DNA of 64,000 nt, from NCBI RefSeq assembly GCF_030384885.1, contig NZ_CP128613.1. One strand, written 5' to 3'. The stretch's first letter is position 1; each line of letters begins with the position of its first letter. The position numbers and the translations under genes were made by a program. Of the stretch, positions 12,295-43,881 are shown one piece after another. The stretch comes from Escherichia coli (lineage in GTDB: Bacteria > Pseudomonadota > Gammaproteobacteria > Enterobacterales > Enterobacteriaceae). The notes under the pieces are model-generated. The model had not been told where the DNA came from. It did no database searches and worked only from the letters and a program-made list of their open reading frames with translations.

Positions 12295-12395
12295 TAGTTG
12301 AATAATCAACCGGAATAAATCTCCGGTAAATAACGACAAAAACAAAATTGGCCGTTTCGGTCAGGGCCAATTATTGCCTGAAAAAGGGTAACGAT

Positions 12396-21992: not shown

Positions 21993-22031
21993 TAGTGCAC
22001 TGGTAGCTGTTAAGCCAGGGGCGGTAGCGTG
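21993..22031 (+). promoter_or_regulatory. JUMPstart element with ops (RfaH-dependent antitermination) upstream of the O-antigen cluster
   Basis: agtgcactggtagctgttaagccaggggcggtagcgtg; ops core ggcggtag at 22020-22027. Confidence 0.85.
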
Positions 22032-22130: not shown

Positions 22131-23135
22131 ATGAAAGTAATTGTAAATAATTTTTTTGATGGTATTTTGAAAAGAGGAATACCGATCTATACTTCTGAAC
22201 TTGTGCAAAAGTTAAGAGACAATAATGTTCAGGTTATTTATGTTGCATGTCCAAAAGCATTCCATAAGCTGCCTTCATGGTTTCTGAATGTTCTTTTTAT
22301 AATAGTAGAGCAGCTTTTAATACCAATTATGGGTATATTTTATAGAACTAAGTATAATATATATCCCTATAATAGTAGTTCCATCATTGACTTGTTATTA
22401 GGTAAGGCAATTGTTATAATTCATGACTTCATTAGTCTTAAGAAAAATAAACGAAACCTTGCTGCCATTTATGTGAAAGTCTGTATTTATTTTTCATCTT
22501 TTTTAGCAAAGAAAGTAATATTTATTTCTCAAAGCACTCAGCGAGTATCTAAGAGAATATCGCTATTTAAGCGTATAGAATCTATCCTGCTCCCAAATCC
22601 ATTTTTCTCATTTGAGAAAATTGCTAATGTTACCGAAATAAAAGATCTTGGATATTTACTTCTAGTTTCAGGTTTAGGGGATAATAAGGATCTAGGCACA
22701 GCTCTGGACTATTATTTTTCAATCCCAAGGGAAGAAAGAATACCATTAAAAATATTAGGTTGTGGGAATGGTATTAGCAAGGTTAACGACTTAATTGATG
22801 GGCGGGATACAGATAAAGAAATTGAAATTATTGGTTTTGTTTCTTTAGAGGAAGTCGTCAAACTATATTGTAATTCTAAAATTGTTTGGGCTCATTCGCT
22901 TGCCGAGGGGTATGGCAGGACTTTAGCTGAAGCAAAACTCACATGCAAAAATGTTATATGCACACGGATCTCTGCTTTCCGCGAACAAAAGGATTCGAAT
23001 ATTTTCTTTTATACTTACTATTCTGAGTATTATGAAGTCTATTCATACTTGGTAGATAATTCACCCAGTGTCGAAAGGAAAGCTCTGCATGAACATATTT
23101 TATTTGAAAATGAATTGAGAAAGATTTATGAGTAA
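22131..23135 (+). CDS. O-antigen glycosyltransferase, GT4-like (likely mannosyltransferase), ~334 aa
   Basis: Low-GC ORF; C-terminal E-x7-E-type motif (AHSLAEGYGRTLAEAK); start set to MKVIVNN at 22131 with RBS aagag. Confidence 0.6.
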   Translation: MKVIVNNFFDGILKRGIPIYTSELVQKLRDNNVQVIYVACPKAFHKLPSWFLNVLFIIVEQLLIPIMGIFYRTKYNIYPYNSSSIIDLLLGKAIVIIHDFISLKKNKRNLAAIYVKVCIYFSSFLAKKVIFISQSTQRVSKRISLFKRIESILLPNPFFSFEKIANVTEIKDLGYLLLVSGLGDNKDLGTALDYYFSIPREERIPLKILGCGNGISKVNDLIDGRDTDKEIEIIGFVSLEEVVKLYCNSKIVWAHSLAEGYGRTLAEAKLTCKNVICTRISAFREQKDSNIFFYTYYSEYYEVYSYLVDNSPSVERKALHEHILFENELRKIYE

Positions 23136-24330
23136 TATTGATATAAATAAGAAACAGATATTAGTTTTGACTCCACGGTTCCCATTTCCTGTCATTGGTG
23201 GGGATCGATTACGTATCTATAAGATCTGTAAAGAACTGTCTAAGCATTATGATCTTACGTTGCTGAGTCTGTGTGATAAACGCGAAGAGCTCAACTATGA
23301 ATATGATCGTGAAGTTTTTAGTAGTGTTCACAGAGTATATCTTTCAAAGAAAAAATCTGTTTTAAATGTCATATTCTCTTTGTTTTCAAATACACCCCTA
23401 CAGATTGGGTATTATAAATCTAAAGAATTTGAAGATAAACTTAAGCAGTTATTACCTGAACATTCTGCAACTCTTTCACATTTGATAAGGGTTGGTGATT
23501 ATGTGAAAGAGAATAAAGATATAAATTTTTTAGAGATGACCGATGCCATTTCACTTAATTATAAACGAGTAAAGGAAAAAGCATCTTTATTGAGTTTAAA
23601 AACATTTGTATATTCTTTTGAACAAAAAAGACTCGAACGATATGAGCGAACTATAAATAACAAGTTCAGCTTGACTACTTTGGTATCACAGGTTGACTCC
23701 GATTATTTATATCCAGAGCGTCCGAATAATGTATTAGTTTGTGGAAATGGTGTTGATGCCGTTAGCTTACCTTTTTCAGAACGAAAAATAGCTAAAGATA
23801 AAAAGATAACCCTTGTATTTATAGGTAATTTATATTCTTTGCAAAATATGGATGGTGTGAGATGGTTCACCAAGGAAGTTTTACCATTTCTGAACAAGCA
23901 TGGTAATTTTGAATTTAAGGTCATCGGACGTATTACAGATAAAGATAAGAGTTGGTTAGAAAGCCAGCCTGGCGTTGTTGTCACAGGTGAAGTTGATAGC
24001 ATAACTTATGCAGCAGCTGATGGGCATATTGGTGTGTGTCCTATTAGATTAGGGGCAGGTATCCAAAATAAGGTACTTGAATATATGGCGTTGGGATTAC
24101 CTTGTATATCTTCTACTGTAGGCTTTGAAGGCTTGGGAGCAGAGGAGGGTAAGGAGATTTATGTTGCCAATACAAAAGAAGAATATTTACGTGTATTAAA
24201 TTATTTTATAACAAATCTGGATAAATATACCGAAACAGCATTAGTTGCGAAAAAGTTTATCGATGAGAATTTTTCATGGGAAGCTAAATTGAGCCCATAT
24301 ATCCAGAAAATTAAGGAGTCTGTTAAATAA
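23128..24330 (+). CDS. O-antigen glycosyltransferase, GT4 family, 400 aa
   Basis: GT4 signature region [43 protein letters not shown]; 8-nt overlap with upstream GT. Confidence 0.7.
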
Positions 24331-24331
24331 A

Positions 24332-25747
24332 ATGATTATCCCAATTATTATGGCCGGTGGTTCTGGGACTCGCTTATGGCCTCTTTCGCGTTCGTTATAC
24401 CCGAAACAATTTTTATCATTGACTAATGAAAATAGTTTGCTCCAGGAAACGTTGAAGCGACTTGATGGATTAAATTGTTTGCCTCCTGTCATTGTTAGCA
24501 ATAATGAGCATAGATTTATTGTTGCTGAACAATTGCGACAGTTCGGTGTGGATGACTTCCAGATTATTCTAGAACCTGTAGGTAGAAATACTGCGCCCGC
24601 CGTTGCGCTGGCTGCTCTAAAGGCTCTGGAACTCCATGGCGATCATCATATGCTGGTTCTTGCTGCTGACCATGCTATTCAGGATATTGAAGCCTTCCAT
24701 GCAGCTGTTTTAGCTGCAGAACAAGAGTCCGTTGACAATAAGTTAGTGACTTTTGGCATCGTCCCGACCAAACCTGAAACTGGGTATGGCTATATTAAAA
24801 AGGGCGAACAAGTTAAAAACTCCGTATTTAAAGTAAATTCTTTCGTCGAAAAACCTGATTTAGAAACGGCTAAAAATTATCTCGAACAAAAATGCTATTT
24901 GTGGAATAGTGGTATGTTCATGTTCAAGGCGAGCGTATATTTAGATGAATTGAAAAAATTTCGCCCTGATATTTTAGCAGCGTGTAAAGAGTCGCTTTCC
25001 AGTGCTAGTACTGATCTAGATTTTATCAGATTAAATTCTGATGTCTTTGCAGAATGTCCCGATGAGTCAATTGATTATGCGGTAATGGAAAAAACTCAGG
25101 ATTGTGTAGTTATTCCACTTGATGCTGACTGGAGTGACATCGGATCATGGACATCACTTTGGGAAATATCAGAGAAAGATGAACATGAAAACGTATCGCA
25201 TGGTGATGTAATTAACTATAACAGCAGGAACAACTACATTTACTCTGAAGGTTCACTGATCAGCACTGTTGGAGTTAATAACCTTATTATAGTTCAAACT
25301 AAAGATGCGCTCCTGGTAGCACAGCAAGACAACGTACAAGACATAAAGAAAATTGTCGAAATTCTTAAAAAACAAAAACGTAGCGAACATATATCCCATC
25401 GCGAAGTCTATCGTCCTTGGGGACGTTATGATTCTGTAGAACGTGGCGACCGTTATCAGGTAAAACGTATTACCGTTAAGCCTGGTGAATGTCTCTCAAC
25501 ACAAATGCATCATCATCGAGCTGAGCATTGGGTGGTTGTCGCTGGTACTGCAAAGGTGACTTGCGGCGAACGCACTTATTTCGTCACTGAAAATGAGTCA
25601 ACTTTCATACCAATTGGCACAGTTCATACCTTGGAAAATCCAGGAAAGATACCATTAGAAGTAATTGAGATTCAGTCGGGTGTATATCTAGGTGATGATG
25701 ATATTGTGCGCCTAAGTGATAAATATGGTCGTGTTGAGGATAAATAA
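24332..25747 (+). CDS. manC: Mannose-1-phosphate guanylyltransferase (O-antigen copy), 471 aa
   Basis: [16 protein letters not shown] motif and cupin C-terminus; paralog of cpsB in this window but low GC. Confidence 0.9.
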
Positions 25748-25751
25748 TTAT

Positions 25752-27173
25752 ATGAATATTACCAATGATGTAATTAAAAATAGCGGAATTGCATTTGGTA
25801 CAAGTGGTGCTCGTGGATTAGTGAAAGATTTTACACCCAACGTGTGTGCTGCATTCACTTATGCTTTTATCGATGTAATGATGAAGGATTTTTCTTTTAA
25901 AGAGGTTGCGCTCGCAATAGATAATCGCCCAAGCAGCTATGCTATGGCACAAGCTTGCGCAGCAGCATTGTTGGAATGTAGTATTAAACCTATTTACTAC
26001 GGTGTAATTCCAACTCCAGCTTTGGCAAATCAAGCGATTGCCGATGGGATTCCTGCAATAATGGTTACTGGAAGTCATATTCCATTTGATAGAAATGGTT
26101 TGAAATTCTATCGTCCAGACGGGGAAATTTCAAAAGAAAATGAGAACAGCATTATACATGCTGAAAAAGAATATCCTGATGTAACTGTATTGCCAGAATT
26201 ACAATGTTCAAAGCGTGCCGCTGATACTTATATCGAGAGAAACACTTCAATTTTTTCAAATATATTTAAAGGTAAACGTATCGGGATTTATGAACATTCA
26301 AGTGCGGGACGGGATCTTTATCCAGAAATATTCAGTAAGCTTGGTGCTGAAGTTGTAAGTATTGGTAGAAGTGATGAGTTTGTGCCTATTGATACTGAAG
26401 CAGTATCAAAAGAAGATGAAGAAAAAGCTTTACACTGGTCATCTGAGTATGACCTCGATATGATTTTTTCTACCGATGGTGATGGCGATCGTCCTTTGGT
26501 TGCTGACGAAAATGGCGTTTGGTTACGGGGTGATATATTAGGACTATTTTGCTCAAAGGCAATGAATATTGAAGCGGTAGCTGTACCTGTAAGTTGTAAT
26601 ACGGTTATTCAGACCTGCGGGTGGTTTAATCATGTAACGCTGACTAAAATTGGTTCACCATACGTCATTTCAGCGTTTGATTCTCTGAATAATAGTTTTG
26701 ATAGTGTTGCAGGGTTTGAGGCTAACGGTGGGTATCTTTTAGGTAGCGATGTAAATTATAACAGCGGTATGATTAAAGCGCTTCCAACAAGAGATGCTGT
26801 TTTGCCTGCTTTAATGGTACTGGCACTGGCTATAAAAAATAATGTGACTATTTCAAAACTTTTGGCGGAGTTGCCACCACGATTTACCTATTCAAATAGA
26901 GTTCAAAATTTTGCAACAAGCAAAAGCAAAAGCATTATCGCGTCAGCTCAAGAAAATCCTCAAGAATTTATCGAAAGAATAGGCTTTGTCGACCTTCATG
27001 TACAATCGGTGGATACAATTGACGGGTTAAGATTGACACTAAGTGATGGTTCAATAATCCATTTGCGACCGTCAGGCAACGCACCTGAATTGCGATGCTA
27101 TGCAGAAGCAGATAACATAATAAAAGCTGAGAAATTAGTGTTAGAAATTTTGCATAAAGTTACTCTTTTGTAA
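25752..27173 (+). CDS. manB: Phosphomannomutase-like alpha-D-phosphohexomutase (O-antigen copy), ~473 aa, divergent from cpsG
   Basis: Phosphohexomutase loops present but atypical: TGSHIP (phosphoserine loop), DGDGDR (metal), GFEANGG (sugar), RPSGNAPE (phosphate); start set to MNITNDV at 25752. Confidence 0.75.
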
Positions 27174-27356
27174 AAAAATATAAACTTTTTTCTACTCTTG
27201 AGCGGTTTGTCATTGAACCGCTCAGTAATAGATTATTTTTAACTTGTTTATATTTAGCATTGGTGTTTTTATTTGCGTTCATCCCGAATAAGAGATTGTA
27301 AAATTAACTGTTTCTTGTTTTTCAAATGAGTTACTTCACTAGCAAAGCTAATTACT

Positions 27357-28688
27357 ATGCATAAGCAATATTATTCATTATTGTGCAATAAAATACAGTT
27401 TAAACATCTGGCTATATATTTTTCTGTATTTCTTTCACTATCCTCATGTTTCTTGTGGGGAGGGGCGGATACATTTGTATCGCAAGTGTATATTGATATT
27501 TTAGCCACTATATCTACAGCTCTATTAGTTATTTTGATGTTCTATTATTATATTAATAGAGTTCGCTATTTATCACTAACCTTACTTTTTGCATTCGTTT
27601 TTTCTTTGATTATTGGTTTGCCATCGATTTATCTTTACTATTTTAAAAACGCAAATCATGGGTTTGAAATAATTTGTATCTGGGGGATGTTGATCAATTC
27701 CATCCTTTACTTGCAAACAACAGAGACTGTCATAAAAGAAGAAAAAAGATATTTAACTAGTTTATTTTATATTTTGTTTTCTATTGTTGCACTGTGTCAA
27801 TTATGCAAAATATTAATTTATCTTATGTTTATATTGAATTCAGGAGAAGGGCATTTAGCAATTTATACTGAAAGCGAAGAATTGCTATCCCAAGTTCCAT
27901 TTTTTATTCGTGCTATTAGTGGTTTTGCAGTTGTAATGTCATTGTCCACTTTTTATTTTAAAACACCGACCTACATTAAAGTTATTGCATTTATTTTACT
28001 TGCATCTGATTTAGCTATTGGAATACGTAATAAGTTTTTCTTTTCAGTGATTTGTATTTTTATACTATATATGTACTCTAATGAGTATAGAGTAAGGAAT
28101 TTATTTAAGCAGCTCTCAAAACCAATATTTCTCATCGCGGGTTTTTTATGCTTCTCGATGGTATCGTATTTCCGTGAAGGGTACCAAATCGATTTTATGA
28201 ATTATATTGGCATTGTTTTAGATTCGCTATCCTCTACTCTTGGGGGGATGCAGAATTTGTTTGATATGCAATCATCAGGATGGGATCAACTTCATCCCGC
28301 TGTGGTATTCACACAAGTATTACCGCTAAGCGGTCTTGGTTTTCTTGATGATCAACAAATCGCAAAAGATTTTTCAATAATTGTTTTAGGTGATGTATCC
28401 TCTGGTATTGCGTTGTCATCTTCAGGATTGTTAGAGTCATCGTTGCTGAGTCTAAATTTGGGAGTGATTATTTATTTACTGTATTTATCAGGGGTGATGC
28501 TATTTATTAAATGGGGACTAAATAATCAACGGATAATAATAAACTTTGTTGCCATCTCCATGATATCTGGATTTTTTTATGCTGTTCGTGGTGAACTGAT
28601 TTTGCCATTGGCTTTTCTTCTAAAATCATTGCCGATTGTTCTTATATCTCCATTACTTGTTAAAAATAAAATTTATCATGGTCAGTAA
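27357..28688 (+). CDS. wzy: Putative O-antigen polymerase Wzy (polytopic membrane protein), 443 aa
   Basis: Very hydrophobic, low-GC, poor RBS, lies next to wzx in the O-antigen cluster; assignment by elimination. Confidence 0.55.
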   Translation: MHKQYYSLLCNKIQFKHLAIYFSVFLSLSSCFLWGGADTFVSQVYIDILATISTALLVILMFYYYINRVRYLSLTLLFAFVFSLIIGLPSIYLYYFKNANHGFEIICIWGMLINSILYLQTTETVIKEEKRYLTSLFYILFSIVALCQLCKILIYLMFILNSGEGHLAIYTESEELLSQVPFFIRAISGFAVVMSLSTFYFKTPTYIKVIAFILLASDLAIGIRNKFFFSVICIFILYMYSNEYRVRNLFKQLSKPIFLIAGFLCFSMVSYFREGYQIDFMNYIGIVLDSLSSTLGGMQNLFDMQSSGWDQLHPAVVFTQVLPLSGLGFLDDQQIAKDFSIIVLGDVSSGIALSSSGLLESSLLSLNLGVIIYLLYLSGVMLFIKWGLNNQRIIINFVAISMISGFFYAVRGELILPLAFLLKSLPIVLISPLLVKNKIYHGQ

Positions 28689-28729
28689 GTGGTTTATTTT
28701 TCGACCAGGATCTCACCAGTAGGCATGAC

Positions 28730-29965
28730 ATGATCAAAGAAATTTTCTCCGATGGCATTTTTTCGCTATTTAATAAAATATGTTACTTCGGTTTTAAAAC
28801 ACTTGCAATAATTCTGATTACTCGTTCCTTAGGAGAAGATGTAGGCGGAGAGTTCATTTTTTTAGTTGGTTTTCTCGAAGTCCTTCGGGTGGTTACTGAT
28901 TTTGGTGTGGATCTGTTTGTTATAAAAAAATATAATGATTCTACAGATAAAATAAAACTATTAAATGTAACGTTTGCACAAAAAATTCTTTCTGGAGTAA
29001 TTGTTTCACTACTGTTTTGTTTGTATTCTTTTGTTCATGGTTATCAATATAATGTCTATATTCCTATTGTGTTAGCCTTACCTGTTGCTTTATTTTTTAA
29101 TTTCTCAAATAGCTATTTTCAATCTCTCAATTCCAATAAATCCCTCACGTTTCCGATCGCAATTGCATCTATTGCAACGTGTACGATCTTCGCTATTCAG
29201 TATTTTTTAAACGTTAAATTTAACGCATGGGATTACCTGTGTGTTGAACTATTATTCGTATCGCTGGTTACACTAAAACTATTCGTTAGTGTCAAGTTTA
29301 GGTTTATTAGAACGTCAGCTTTTGATGTGCTAATGTCAATTCTTTCTTTATATAAATATACATTAAGTATAGGTCTTACAGCTGTTGTTGTAATTATTTA
29401 TAGCCGTGTAGATAATTTTTATCTCAAGACATTTGCCCCAGGGGATCTTGCAGCATATGGCCAGATATTTAGGATGGTTGATCCACTGGTTATGGTTTCT
29501 TCTGTATTTTCTACAGTTGCCTATGCAAGATTTTGCCGAATTAACTTACAAGAAAAAAATGCTTTTACTAAGGTGTTTCAGTTCCTGTTATGTATTGTGG
29601 CATATGGCGTGCTGAGTTCATTAGTTTATTTCTTTATAATAAAATACCTGGGTCATTTTGTGTTGATTTCTAATGTTAATAATGATTTCTTGATAATGAT
29701 GTTCTTGATTGTTGCATGTGTGAAATGTATCAATGGTGGTACAACTGCAATAATTCAGTCACAGGGGTTTTATAAAGTGGGTTTGTATGTTTCGTATGTT
29801 TGCATTTTGACATCGATACCAACTATGTATTTCTTAATAATGAAGTACGGTGTTAAAGGTGCTGCTATGACGATTCTGCTTGTAGAGTGTATTAGTTTCA
29901 TATTACTTCTCTGCAGCTTTTTTATGATAAAAAAGATGCGTCCTAAAAAAACATTCGAAATGTAA
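28730..29965 (+). CDS. wzx: Putative O-antigen flippase Wzx, 411 aa
   Basis: N-terminal region LAIILITRSLGEDVGGEFIFLVG...DFGVDLFVIKK parallels the wzxC N-terminus (LARIIDNHQFGLLTV...DFGIANSIIQRK); about 12 hydrophobic segments. Confidence 0.65.
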   Translation: MIKEIFSDGIFSLFNKICYFGFKTLAIILITRSLGEDVGGEFIFLVGFLEVLRVVTDFGVDLFVIKKYNDSTDKIKLLNVTFAQKILSGVIVSLLFCLYSFVHGYQYNVYIPIVLALPVALFFNFSNSYFQSLNSNKSLTFPIAIASIATCTIFAIQYFLNVKFNAWDYLCVELLFVSLVTLKLFVSVKFRFIRTSAFDVLMSILSLYKYTLSIGLTAVVVIIYSRVDNFYLKTFAPGDLAAYGQIFRMVDPLVMVSSVFSTVAYARFCRINLQEKNAFTKVFQFLLCIVAYGVLSSLVYFFIIKYLGHFVLISNVNNDFLIMMFLIVACVKCINGGTTAIIQSQGFYKVGLYVSYVCILTSIPTMYFLIMKYGVKGAAMTILLVECISFILLLCSFFMIKKMRPKKTFEM

Positions 29966-40293: not shown

Positions 40294-41193
40294 TCACTCC
40301 ATCATCTTCTCAATCGGCAGGACCAGAATCGAACTGGCACCCAGCGCTTTCAGTTTTTCCATCGTTTCCCAGAACAGGGTTTCGCTACTGACCATGTGCA
40401 TCGCTACGCGCTGTTGATCACCCGCCAGCGGTAGAATGGTTGGGCGTTCGGCACCTGGCAGCAGAGCGATGACTTCATCCAGTCGGTCGGTTGGTGCGTG
40501 CATCATGATGTATTTTGATTCGCGCGCCTGGATCACGCCCTGAATACGCGTCAGCAGTTTGTCGATCAGTTGCTGTTTGGATTCTTCCATTTCGCCATCG
40601 CGTTGGATCAGGCAGGCTTTCGAGCGGTAGATAACTTCGACTTCGCGCAGGCCGTTAGCTTCCAGCGTGGCACCGGTGGAAACCAGATCGCAAATCGCAT
40701 CCGCCAGGCCGGCGCGCGGCGCAACTTCGACAGAACCGTTCAGTAAGCAGGATTTAAAAGAGATGCCTTTCTGATCGAGATAACGCTTGAGCAGGTGAGG
40801 ATAAGAGGTGGCGATACGTTTACCGTTTAAGGAGAGCGGGCCGTCCCAGGCTTCATCAACCGGCGTTGCCAGCGAAAGGCGGCAGCCTCCGAAATCCAGA
40901 CGACGCAGGGTAAAGTAGCGCGGATCTTCACCCTGGGCGCGGCGGTTAAGCAGCTCTTCTTCCAGCACGTTTTCGCCGATAATCCCAAGGTCAACCACGC
41001 CGTCCATTACCAGACCGGGAATGTCGTCGTCACGTACGCGCAGAATATCAATCGGCATGTTTTCTGCCATCGCGATCAGGCGCTGGGTGTGAAGATTAAT
41101 TTTAATGCCGCAGCGCGCCAGTAATTCGCGTGAGTCATCACTTAAACGGCCGGATTTCTGCATAGCTATGCGTAAACGAGTGTTGTCTGTCAT
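40294..41193 (-). CDS. hisG: ATP phosphoribosyltransferase, 299 aa
   Basis: Start set to [17 protein letters not shown]; ORF upstream extension crosses the attenuator and is rejected. Confidence 0.95.
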
Positions 41194-41239
41194 TTTCTTA
41201 TTCCTCTTTAAACCTGTCTGAACCGTTAACAACCGCGCA

Positions 41240-41276
41240 ATAAAAAAGCCCCCGGAAGGTGATCTTCCGGGGGCTT
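41240..41276 (-). terminator. his attenuator (rho-independent terminator between hisL and hisG)
   Basis: On - strand: gcccccggaagatcaccttccgggggc followed by ttttttatt. Confidence 0.9.
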
Positions 41277-41338
41277 TCTCATGCGTTCATGCACCACTGG
41301 AAGATCTGAATGTCTTCCAGCACACATCGCCTGAAAGA

Positions 41339-41389
41339 CTAGTCAGGATGATGGTGATGATGGTGGTGTTTAAATTGAACGCGTGTCAT
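41339..41389 (-). CDS. hisL: his operon leader peptide MTRVQFKHHHHHHHPD
   Basis: 16-codon ORF with seven consecutive His codons, read directly from the reverse complement of 41339-41389. Confidence 0.95.
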   Translation of the reverse strand: MTRVQFKHHHHHHHPD

Positions 41390-41610
41390 AAAAGTCTCTG
41401 TGAATGTTTATTCAACTGATGTCTTTTAACCTAAACCACTTTCACGTTAGAAAGCAAGGGCTTTTTTATATATTTTATGGCGATGGATTTGTTTAATGAA
41501 TGAGCGGGGAAAGGAGAGGGCCAGGAGTGGCTACGTTAAAAAAGTAATCGTGAAAATATGTCTTTAAAACCCTCAAGAACATTGTGTTCTGTAACTAAAG
41601 TGGGCTTGGT

Positions 41611-41715
41611 TCCTGCCGGATGCGGCGTGAATGCCTTATCTGGTCTACAAATGTTGCCTAAATTCAATATATTGATGTTTTTGTAGGACTGATAAGCGGA
41701 GCGCATCAGGCAATT
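41611..41715. repeat. BIME: two REP palindromes in the hisL-yeeZ intergenic region
   Basis: gcctgccggatgcggcgtgaatgccttatctggtctac and inverted copy gtaggactgataagcggagcgcatcaggc. Confidence 0.75.
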
Positions 41716-41815
41716 GTATATTTGCTAACAGTTTCGATTTCATTCATAGAATGAATTGTCAGTTTTGATACGCTAGCGTAGCCTTATAGATCTAAGGTGT
41801 ATCAGGAGATAACGG

Positions 41816-43615: not shown

Positions 43616-43700
43616 AGAAAAATTATTATGACAAGCCTCTCATTCTCTTGTCATTTCCCCCCCATTTAGGCACAATGCGCCGCTGTCAAAAAATGACTAA

Positions 43701-43734
43701 AAACCGACGTTTAATTAGCGTCGGTTATTTTTTG
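43701..43734 (+). terminator. Rho-independent terminator after yeeY
   Basis: aaccgacgtttaattagcgtcggtt followed by attttttg. Confidence 0.7.
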
Positions 43735-43881
43735 CTTCAAACCAATCATTCATACCAAGAGGCCGGGCTTCGTACCGGATAGATATTTACTAAAAATCGA
43801 CAGTTGTTGTCGCTGAGGAATCCAAAAAAATGGGGCAATTTTTTGCTTACGCGACGGTTATTACCGTAAAGGAGAATGACC

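Follow-up and report, generated by a model that had tools for sequence, protein, structure and literature searches.

An intact his operon leader peptide gene and attenuator in a 64,000-nucleotide stretch of an Escherichia coli genome

The minus strand of the window, i.e., the whole 64,000-nucleotide stretch of E. coli DNA that was analysed (NCBI RefSeq assembly GCF_030384885.1, contig NZ_CP128613.1), carries at 41389..41240 the ordinary and intact leader peptide gene and attenuator of the E. coli his operon, an element that is already known. We put the probability that this feature is the classical ribosome-mediated transcription attenuator of the hisLGDCBHAFI operon at about 0.97, and no sequence contradiction to this explanation was found. 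The reading is carried by the elements themselves (Table 1), their identity with those of K-12, the energetics and footprint dependence of the alternative RNA pairings, and the conservation and synteny of the leader. An earlier note on this DNA had called the locus a textbook attenuation module, intact in this strain; this description is supported by the Rfam match, K-12 identity, the RefSeq annotation, the mutually exclusive pairings and the conservation of these pairings. The span that it gave without a strand, 41240-41389, is bounded exactly by the first base of hisL and the last base of the Rfam His_leader match.

Identity and layout of the his leader

The Rfam family RF00514 (His_leader) was the top RNA-family match of the whole-window scan, aligning to 41363..41240 (-) from the first to the last of its 126 model positions with 131.6 bits (gathering score 49; E = 3.6e-23). 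Thr_leader and the other leader models were far below the Rfam threshold at the his leader. The 185-nt leader folded at -69.8 kcal/mol compared with -40.5 ± 4.2 kcal/mol in 200 dinucleotide shuffles (z = -7.0), none of which was as good. A 701-bp query over the element was 100% identical to E. coli strain 2013C-4282 (NZ_CP027579.1), from which positions 1-50000 of the window differ at only two bases. In window coordinates, the features that PGAP annotates in NZ_CP027579.1 comprise hisL (41339-41389), a "His leader region" (41240-41363) and hisG (40294-41193). The structural genes hisGDCBHAF-IE follow the leader without interruption, reaching 34160. In a 371-nt alignment with K-12 MG1655, in which hisL (b2018) and hisG are curated, differences were found only at 41517, 41482, 41229 and 41197; thus no base differs from 41481 to 41230, a stretch that takes in the promoter, hisL, every stem segment and the terminator.

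The 185-nt leader was found in 5423 of 5426 complete E. coli genomes, with at least 99% identity in 4820, and these matches are annotated "His leader region | hisL"; the remaining three genomes had no match to this query. One of the 5430 matches in the collection was plasmid-borne, and some genomes contained up to six places matching the query. As the element matches the K-12 his leader at every base and is present in almost all E. coli genomes, it implies no new biology. Its value is that of a positive control only, in which a textbook regulatory element was recognised from raw sequence and its coordinates, alternative structures, pause site and conservation were all recoverable by computation.

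The leader peptide with seven His codons that had been read from the letters was confirmed, as 41389..41339 (-) translates to MTRVQFKHHHHHHHPD*. Its RNA reads AUG ACA CGC GUU CAA UUU AAA CAC CAC CAU CAU CAC CAU CAU CCU GAC UAG, and the run of His codons is regulatory, sensing the supply of His-tRNA(His) (PMC4046918). A longer alternative hisL ORF was ruled out because the in-frame upstream codons meet a TAA at 41410-41408. An ORF of 23 aa, MMVMMVVFKLNACHKSLCECLFN, lies antisense to hisL at 41348-41419 (+); it is almost certainly not a gene but the mirror of the His-codon run, in which CAT and CAC read backwards as ATG and GTG.

Transcription of the operon probably starts at A41420, approximately 31 nt upstream of hisL. 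This position was chosen to fit a published numbering from +1 (PMC10989985), since only with it do the DnaA-like boxes of the window fall at 46-56 and 126-134. It would give a terminated leader RNA of ca. 180 nt together with plausible TTGCTT and TAGGTT hexamers. The promoter region matches that of K-12 except at one base, 41482. A consensus promoter scan did not call the his promoter, since its -35 element fits the consensus at only three of six positions; this reflects a limitation of the tool and is not evidence of absence.

The predicted pause RNA at 41347..41319 (29 nt) is identical to RNA29, CCUGACUAGUCUUUCAGGCGAUGUGUGCU, the scaffold RNA for the E. coli his paused elongation complex (hisPEC) (PMC5842316). 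G41328, U41319 and G41318 agree with the G-10 Y-1 G+1 pause consensus (PMC9291695), and the sequence contains the complete set of marks of a class I, hairpin-dependent his pause, i.e., the pause hairpin, an 11-nt spacer and G-10 Y-1 G+1. Pausing at this site would be expected from the literature (PMC9291695).

Table 1. Coordinates of the his leader features and of other RNA elements in the window.
Feature	Position	Strand	Details
Probable his promoter	41428..41457	-	-35 TTGCTT 41457-41452, 18-nt spacer, -10 TAGGTT 41433-41428; inferred, read from sequence
hisL, his operon leader peptide CDS	41339..41389	-	16 codons + UAG, MTRVQFKHHHHHHHPD; WP_001364200.1 in NZ_CP027579.1, b2018 in K-12
Seven consecutive His codons	41348..41368	-	CAC CAC CAU CAU CAC CAU CAU, codons 8-14; from sequence
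his transcriptional pause site (predicted)	41319	-	RNA 3' end U41319, incoming G41318, G at -10 = 41328
Segment A	41356-41344	-	Overlaps His codons 12-14 and Pro15
Segment B	41340-41321	-	Starts inside stop codon
Segment C	41320-41312	-	
Segment D	41307-41297	-	
Segment E	41279-41261	-	
Segment F	41258-41240	-	
A:B helix	41321..41356	-	MFE structure; duplex -10.7 kcal/mol; 94% of cells paired in 52 leaders
his pause hairpin	41347-41330	-	Apical part of A:B (CCUGA...UCAGG)
C:D helix	41297..41320	-	-11.3 kcal/mol; 98.1% of cells paired in 52 leaders; forms with B in A:B or under the ribosome
B:C helix, first antiterminator helix	41339-41331 with 41320-41312	-	9 bp including one G-U; -12.0 kcal/mol; 98.3% of cells paired in 52 leaders
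D:E helix, antiterminator sequestering the terminator 5' arm	41306-41297 with 41270-41261	-	-12.2 kcal/mol; 94.4% of cells paired in 52 leaders
E:F intrinsic terminator (attenuator)	41240..41279	-	16-bp stem 41279-41264 / 41258-41243, loop AUCAC; -30.1 kcal/mol; 97.4% of cells paired in 52 leaders
hisG, ATP phosphoribosyltransferase	40294..41193	-	299 aa; first structural gene under the attenuator; PGAP and K-12 annotation
algC RNA motif	12342-12391	+	Above Rfam threshold; just upstream of cpsG (phosphomannomutase), colanic acid cluster
JUMPstart element	21993-22031	+	Above Rfam threshold; upstream of O-antigen cluster
STnc240	43661-43735	+	Above Rfam threshold; upstream of yoeI/plaP

The start of hisG required correction in a mechanical ORF list that allows ATG, GTG and TTG starts; it extends the gene to 40294..41232 (312 aa) with a TTG start, 13 codons beyond the annotated ATG at 41193. 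The earlier note had stated that the hisG ORF in its track was artificially extended upstream through the attenuator. An over-extension, by 13 codons, was borne out, but the called ORF does not cross the attenuator because its TTG at 41232 sits 8 nt downstream of the last attenuator base. The stop-free frame of hisG does reach back across E:F to a TGA at 41289-41287, and the part of this frame upstream through E:F contained no ATG, GTG or TTG, the only candidate being an ATT at 41241. A Shine-Dalgarno sequence (GAGG) is located at 41206-41203, and its spacing, together with the K-12 and PGAP annotations, supports 41193 as the true hisG start. Naive calling of the longest ORF thus over-extends hisG.

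Alternative pairings, ribosome position and conservation

The his attenuator has been described as six segments, A to F, that form five helices, in which A:B, C:D and E:F compete with B:C and D:E; mutational evidence for this attenuation model is also available (PMC4046918). The scheme is that of Johnston, Barnes, Chumley, Bossi and Roth (1980) for Salmonella and E. coli, as relayed in PMC4046918, and the stem-loop names AB, CD and EF are also used in PMC10989985. All six segments and five helices were located in the window (Table 1). The GC-rich hairpin and U-tract said to precede hisG correspond to the E:F hairpin at 41279..41243 and the U-run at 41247..41242, with the hisG ATG at 41193. The core of E:F comprises 11 bp (41274-41264 / 41258-41248), with nine G-C and two A-U pairs and a 5-nt loop, and the 3' end of the hairpin reads UUUUUUAUU, 46 nt upstream of the hisG ATG. 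An automatic terminator scan did not call E:F, because the stem reaches into the U-tract and leaves no T-run after it; as with the promoter, this is a limitation of the tool and not evidence of absence.

The earlier note had proposed folding the leader transcript for alternative 1:2, 2:3 and 3:4 structures. When this check was run, mutually exclusive pairings were indeed found, but they follow the A-F scheme and not the trp-style one. The nascent transcript was folded with its 3' end at 41259, before segment F is made (pre-F), and with a ribosome footprint of ca. 28 nt. The minimum free energy (MFE) structure without a ribosome contained A:B and C:D and left E unpaired, and the structure with the footprint centred on His codons 8-13 contained B:C (9 bp) and D:E (9 bp). 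The pre-F base-pair probabilities described the same switch: D:E had a probability of 0.97-1.00 when any of the seven His codons was occupied by the ribosome, against 0.00 for the ribosome-free transcript and 0.08 for a ribosome positioned at the stop, and the D core (CUUCC) paired with C at probabilities of 1.00 (no ribosome) and 0.92 (ribosome at the stop codon). In the folding model, the predicted pre-F pairing is therefore the behaviour that the classical model requires, i.e., termination without translation or with unimpeded translation, and read-through on a stall at the His codons.

The constraints on this reading come from the folding model. Lengthening the footprint at the stop codon (+15) gave a pre-F MFE structure with D:E instead of C:D. 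In transcripts ending just past segment D, the local C:D hairpin won the MFE structure with or without a ribosome, but this was a badly designed test that is given no weight. In full-length equilibrium folding with ribosome masks, the terminator formed at every ribosome position, as a kinetic switch should behave. Such folding carries no information on attenuation, as the choice is made before F has been transcribed; since the terminator always wins at equilibrium, the switch is demonstrable only on truncated, kinetically relevant transcripts.

Homologous leaders were sought in one genome per species as at least six His codons followed by Pro-Asp-stop, which gave at least 120 loci spanning many genera of Enterobacterales as well as Aeromonas and Pasteurella. 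Among the matches listed (120), all were short leader-type ORFs ending in H6-10 P D. Where the flank was long enough among these listed matches, a HisG homologue (69%-99% identity) lay 3' of the leader on the same strand in every case (111/111), at a distance of 121-293 nt (median 145). The number of His codons varied, with six in many genera, seven in the Escherichia/Klebsiella-like group and 10 in one locus (L092). Several Enterobacter and Citrobacter loci had an in-frame upstream ATG, giving a potentially longer leader peptide (e.g., MNKHSSRIYMTRVQFKHHHHHHHPD).

For 108 homologous leaders among the matches listed, the mean pre-F probability of D:E was 0.18 without a ribosome, ca. 0.8 with the ribosome on the His codons and 0.38 with it at the stop. 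When E-arm bases sequestered in pre-F MFE structures were counted among the matches listed, at least seven were sequestered in 93 of 109 homologues with the ribosome, and at least eight in 12 of 109 without it; only 69 of 109 switched cleanly under a strict two-sided MFE criterion. The MFE-based count is noisy, and base-pair probabilities were therefore used instead.

An alignment of 52 diverse representatives from the matches listed (Enterobacterales, Aeromonas and Pasteurella, pairwise < 90% identical) indicated that both states are conserved, as the terminator-state helices were paired in 96.4% of cells and the antiterminator-state helices likewise in 96.4%. In a control in which the 3' partners were slid by 1-3 columns, the value was 37%-57%, a contrast that is somewhat inflated, since the structures tested came from the window sequence itself. 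Compensatory double changes occurred mostly in E:F and at the ends of D:E; in the same 52 leaders, E:F exchanged G-C and A-U in 12 sequences and C-G and U-A in 18, and three pairs of D:E were changed on both sides. At column 166, where E changes from C to U, F carries a matching G-to-A change in 18 sequences and D:E accommodates the change as a G-U pair in 16, which shows the dual constraint on E. The covariation support is modest because most paired columns are invariant, and such invariance is what segments with two alternative partners are expected to show.

Strain-specific surroundings and other elements in the window

Upstream of the promoter, similarity to K-12 stops at 41527, 107 nt upstream of the probable transcription start. 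The divergent yefM-yoeB toxin-antitoxin genes, which lie between yeeZ and hisL in K-12 (ca. 650 bp; L003 1207-1858), are absent from the window and replaced by a 211-bp segment (41528-41738) between hisL and yeeZ. By eye, this segment shows two imperfect REP-like units in opposite orientations, GCCTGATGCG...TACA and TGTAGACCAGATAAGGCATTCACGCCGCATCCGGC (minus strand); a search of the hisL-yeeZ spacer for inverted repeats with a 9-nt exact seed returned none. In 1193 of 5423 E. coli genomes, E. coli B and O157:H7 among them, the arrangement without yefM-yoeB was matched over at least 80% of the query, so the replacement is a common polymorphism. Downstream of the terminator, the spacer before hisG carries two SNPs relative to K-12, namely T for A at 41229 and G for C at 41197, the second of which precedes the hisG ATG by 4 nt. 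In strain Y5, the base at 41197 is that of the window, and the base at 41229 is not. The SNP at 41229 falls within "DnaA box 4", as proposed in PMC10989985.

We regard it as very unlikely that this strain context, i.e., the REP-like segment in place of yefM-yoeB and the promoter of those genes, together with the two spacer SNPs, measurably alters his regulation relative to K-12. If it did, the effect might concern the basal activity of the his promoter or the proposed DnaA input, with the attenuator itself unchanged.

Elsewhere in the window, the algC, JUMPstart and STnc240 elements (Table 1) were all found in their expected contexts. In the O-antigen cluster (22131-29965, galF to gnd), the annotation assigns wzy and wzx to the O17/O44/O73/O77/O106 family. 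The cluster further encodes a mannose-1-phosphate guanylyltransferase and a phosphomannomutase of its own, duplicating the cpsB/cpsG functions of the colanic acid cluster next to it. A stretch of 4.3 kb contains three tRNA-Asn (GTT) genes, all with the same Rfam score, at 54763-54838 (-), 57172-57247 (-) and 58996-59071 (+). Asn tRNA genes are classic integration sites of genomic islands.

Proposed mechanism, rival explanations and known systems

Under the classical model, RNA polymerase would halt at U41319 behind the pause hairpin until a ribosome starts hisL. When charged tRNA(His) is plentiful, the ribosome would clear the seven His codons to the UAG and cover A and B; C:D would then form, followed by E:F, which with the U-tract would terminate transcription ca. 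180 nt from its start, before hisG. When charged tRNA(His) is scarce, the ribosome would stall at the His codons and mask only A, so that B:C and D:E could form, the terminator would be blocked and the polymerase would continue into hisG-hisI. Without translation, A:B, C:D and E:F would form and transcription would terminate. The response of the his operon to His-tRNA(His) charging via translation of the leader is known in Salmonella and E. coli K-12 (PMC4046918). The same response is assigned, by inference, to the window leader because its sequence is identical to that of K-12, and pausing and termination in vivo would likewise be expected from the literature.

Yao et al. (2023, PMC10989985), drawing on reporter, RIP and mutant data from E. 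coli K-12, proposed that the his leader is a "DnaA-dependent riboswitch", in which DnaA binds putative "rDnaA boxes" in the leader RNA. Since the window leader is identical to that of K-12, boxes 1-3 are present here as well, at offsets 46-54, 48-56 and 126-134 from the probable transcription start. However, each of these boxes has two mismatches to TTWTNCACA, and sites with at most two mismatches number 1311 in the whole window against 1209 ± 32 expected, i.e., approximately one per 50 nt; the 291-nt his control region has eight such matches against ca. 5.5 expected. By sequence, the boxes thus cannot be told from chance. In addition, T at 41229, where K-12 has A, introduces a third mismatch into box 4 in the window strain, and the classical model explains the structure without DnaA. 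We consider it unlikely that DnaA acts on this leader as proposed.

Rather less probable still is a second role for the terminated leader RNA of ca. 180 nt, in which it would act in trans as a small regulatory RNA besides its role in cis. An attenuator is expected to yield an abundant short transcript, and weak matches to sRNA families were found over the terminator (RcsR1, 25.6 bits against a threshold of 60; Spot_42, 22.3 against 80). These scores are far under the gathering scores and driven by a generic terminator hairpin, and all Rfam matches at the terminator (RcsR1, Spot_42, Thr_leader and miRNA models) were rejected as sub-threshold hits to such a hairpin. We therefore judge a trans-acting role highly improbable. 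The commonness of short ORFs is the sole point in favour of reading the locus as a chance His-rich mini-ORF beside an ordinary terminator, with no regulatory coupling. Against it stand the Rfam match (E = 3.6e-23), the short leader ORF at all 120 listed H6-P-D-stop loci in other genera with hisG downstream at all 111 that could be assessed, the reproduced footprint-dependent switch and the fact that both alternative structures are conserved. Conservation and synteny together refute a chance origin, the probability of which is negligible. The classical attenuator therefore remains by far the preferred reading.

Compared with the his leader of K-12 and Salmonella enterica (RF00514), the window has the same peptide, MTRVQFKHHHHHHHPD, the same A-F segments and pause site, and the same position upstream of hisG; relative to K-12, there is no difference inside the element, the SNPs (41229, 41197, 41482 and 41517) lying only outside it. 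The proposed DnaA-dependent riboswitch (PMC10989985) concerns the same locus and the same RNA and adds a protein cofactor. The trp operon leader (trpL) shares the underlying principle, in which stalling of the ribosome at regulatory codons selects between antiterminator and terminator and a polymerase pause couples transcription to translation. We know of no trp-type repressor described for the his operon. The two leaders also differ in architecture: trpL has four segments (1:2, 2:3 and 3:4) and two Trp codons, and this four-segment layout was not recovered in the his leader, in which we found six segments and five helices as well as a run of seven His codons.
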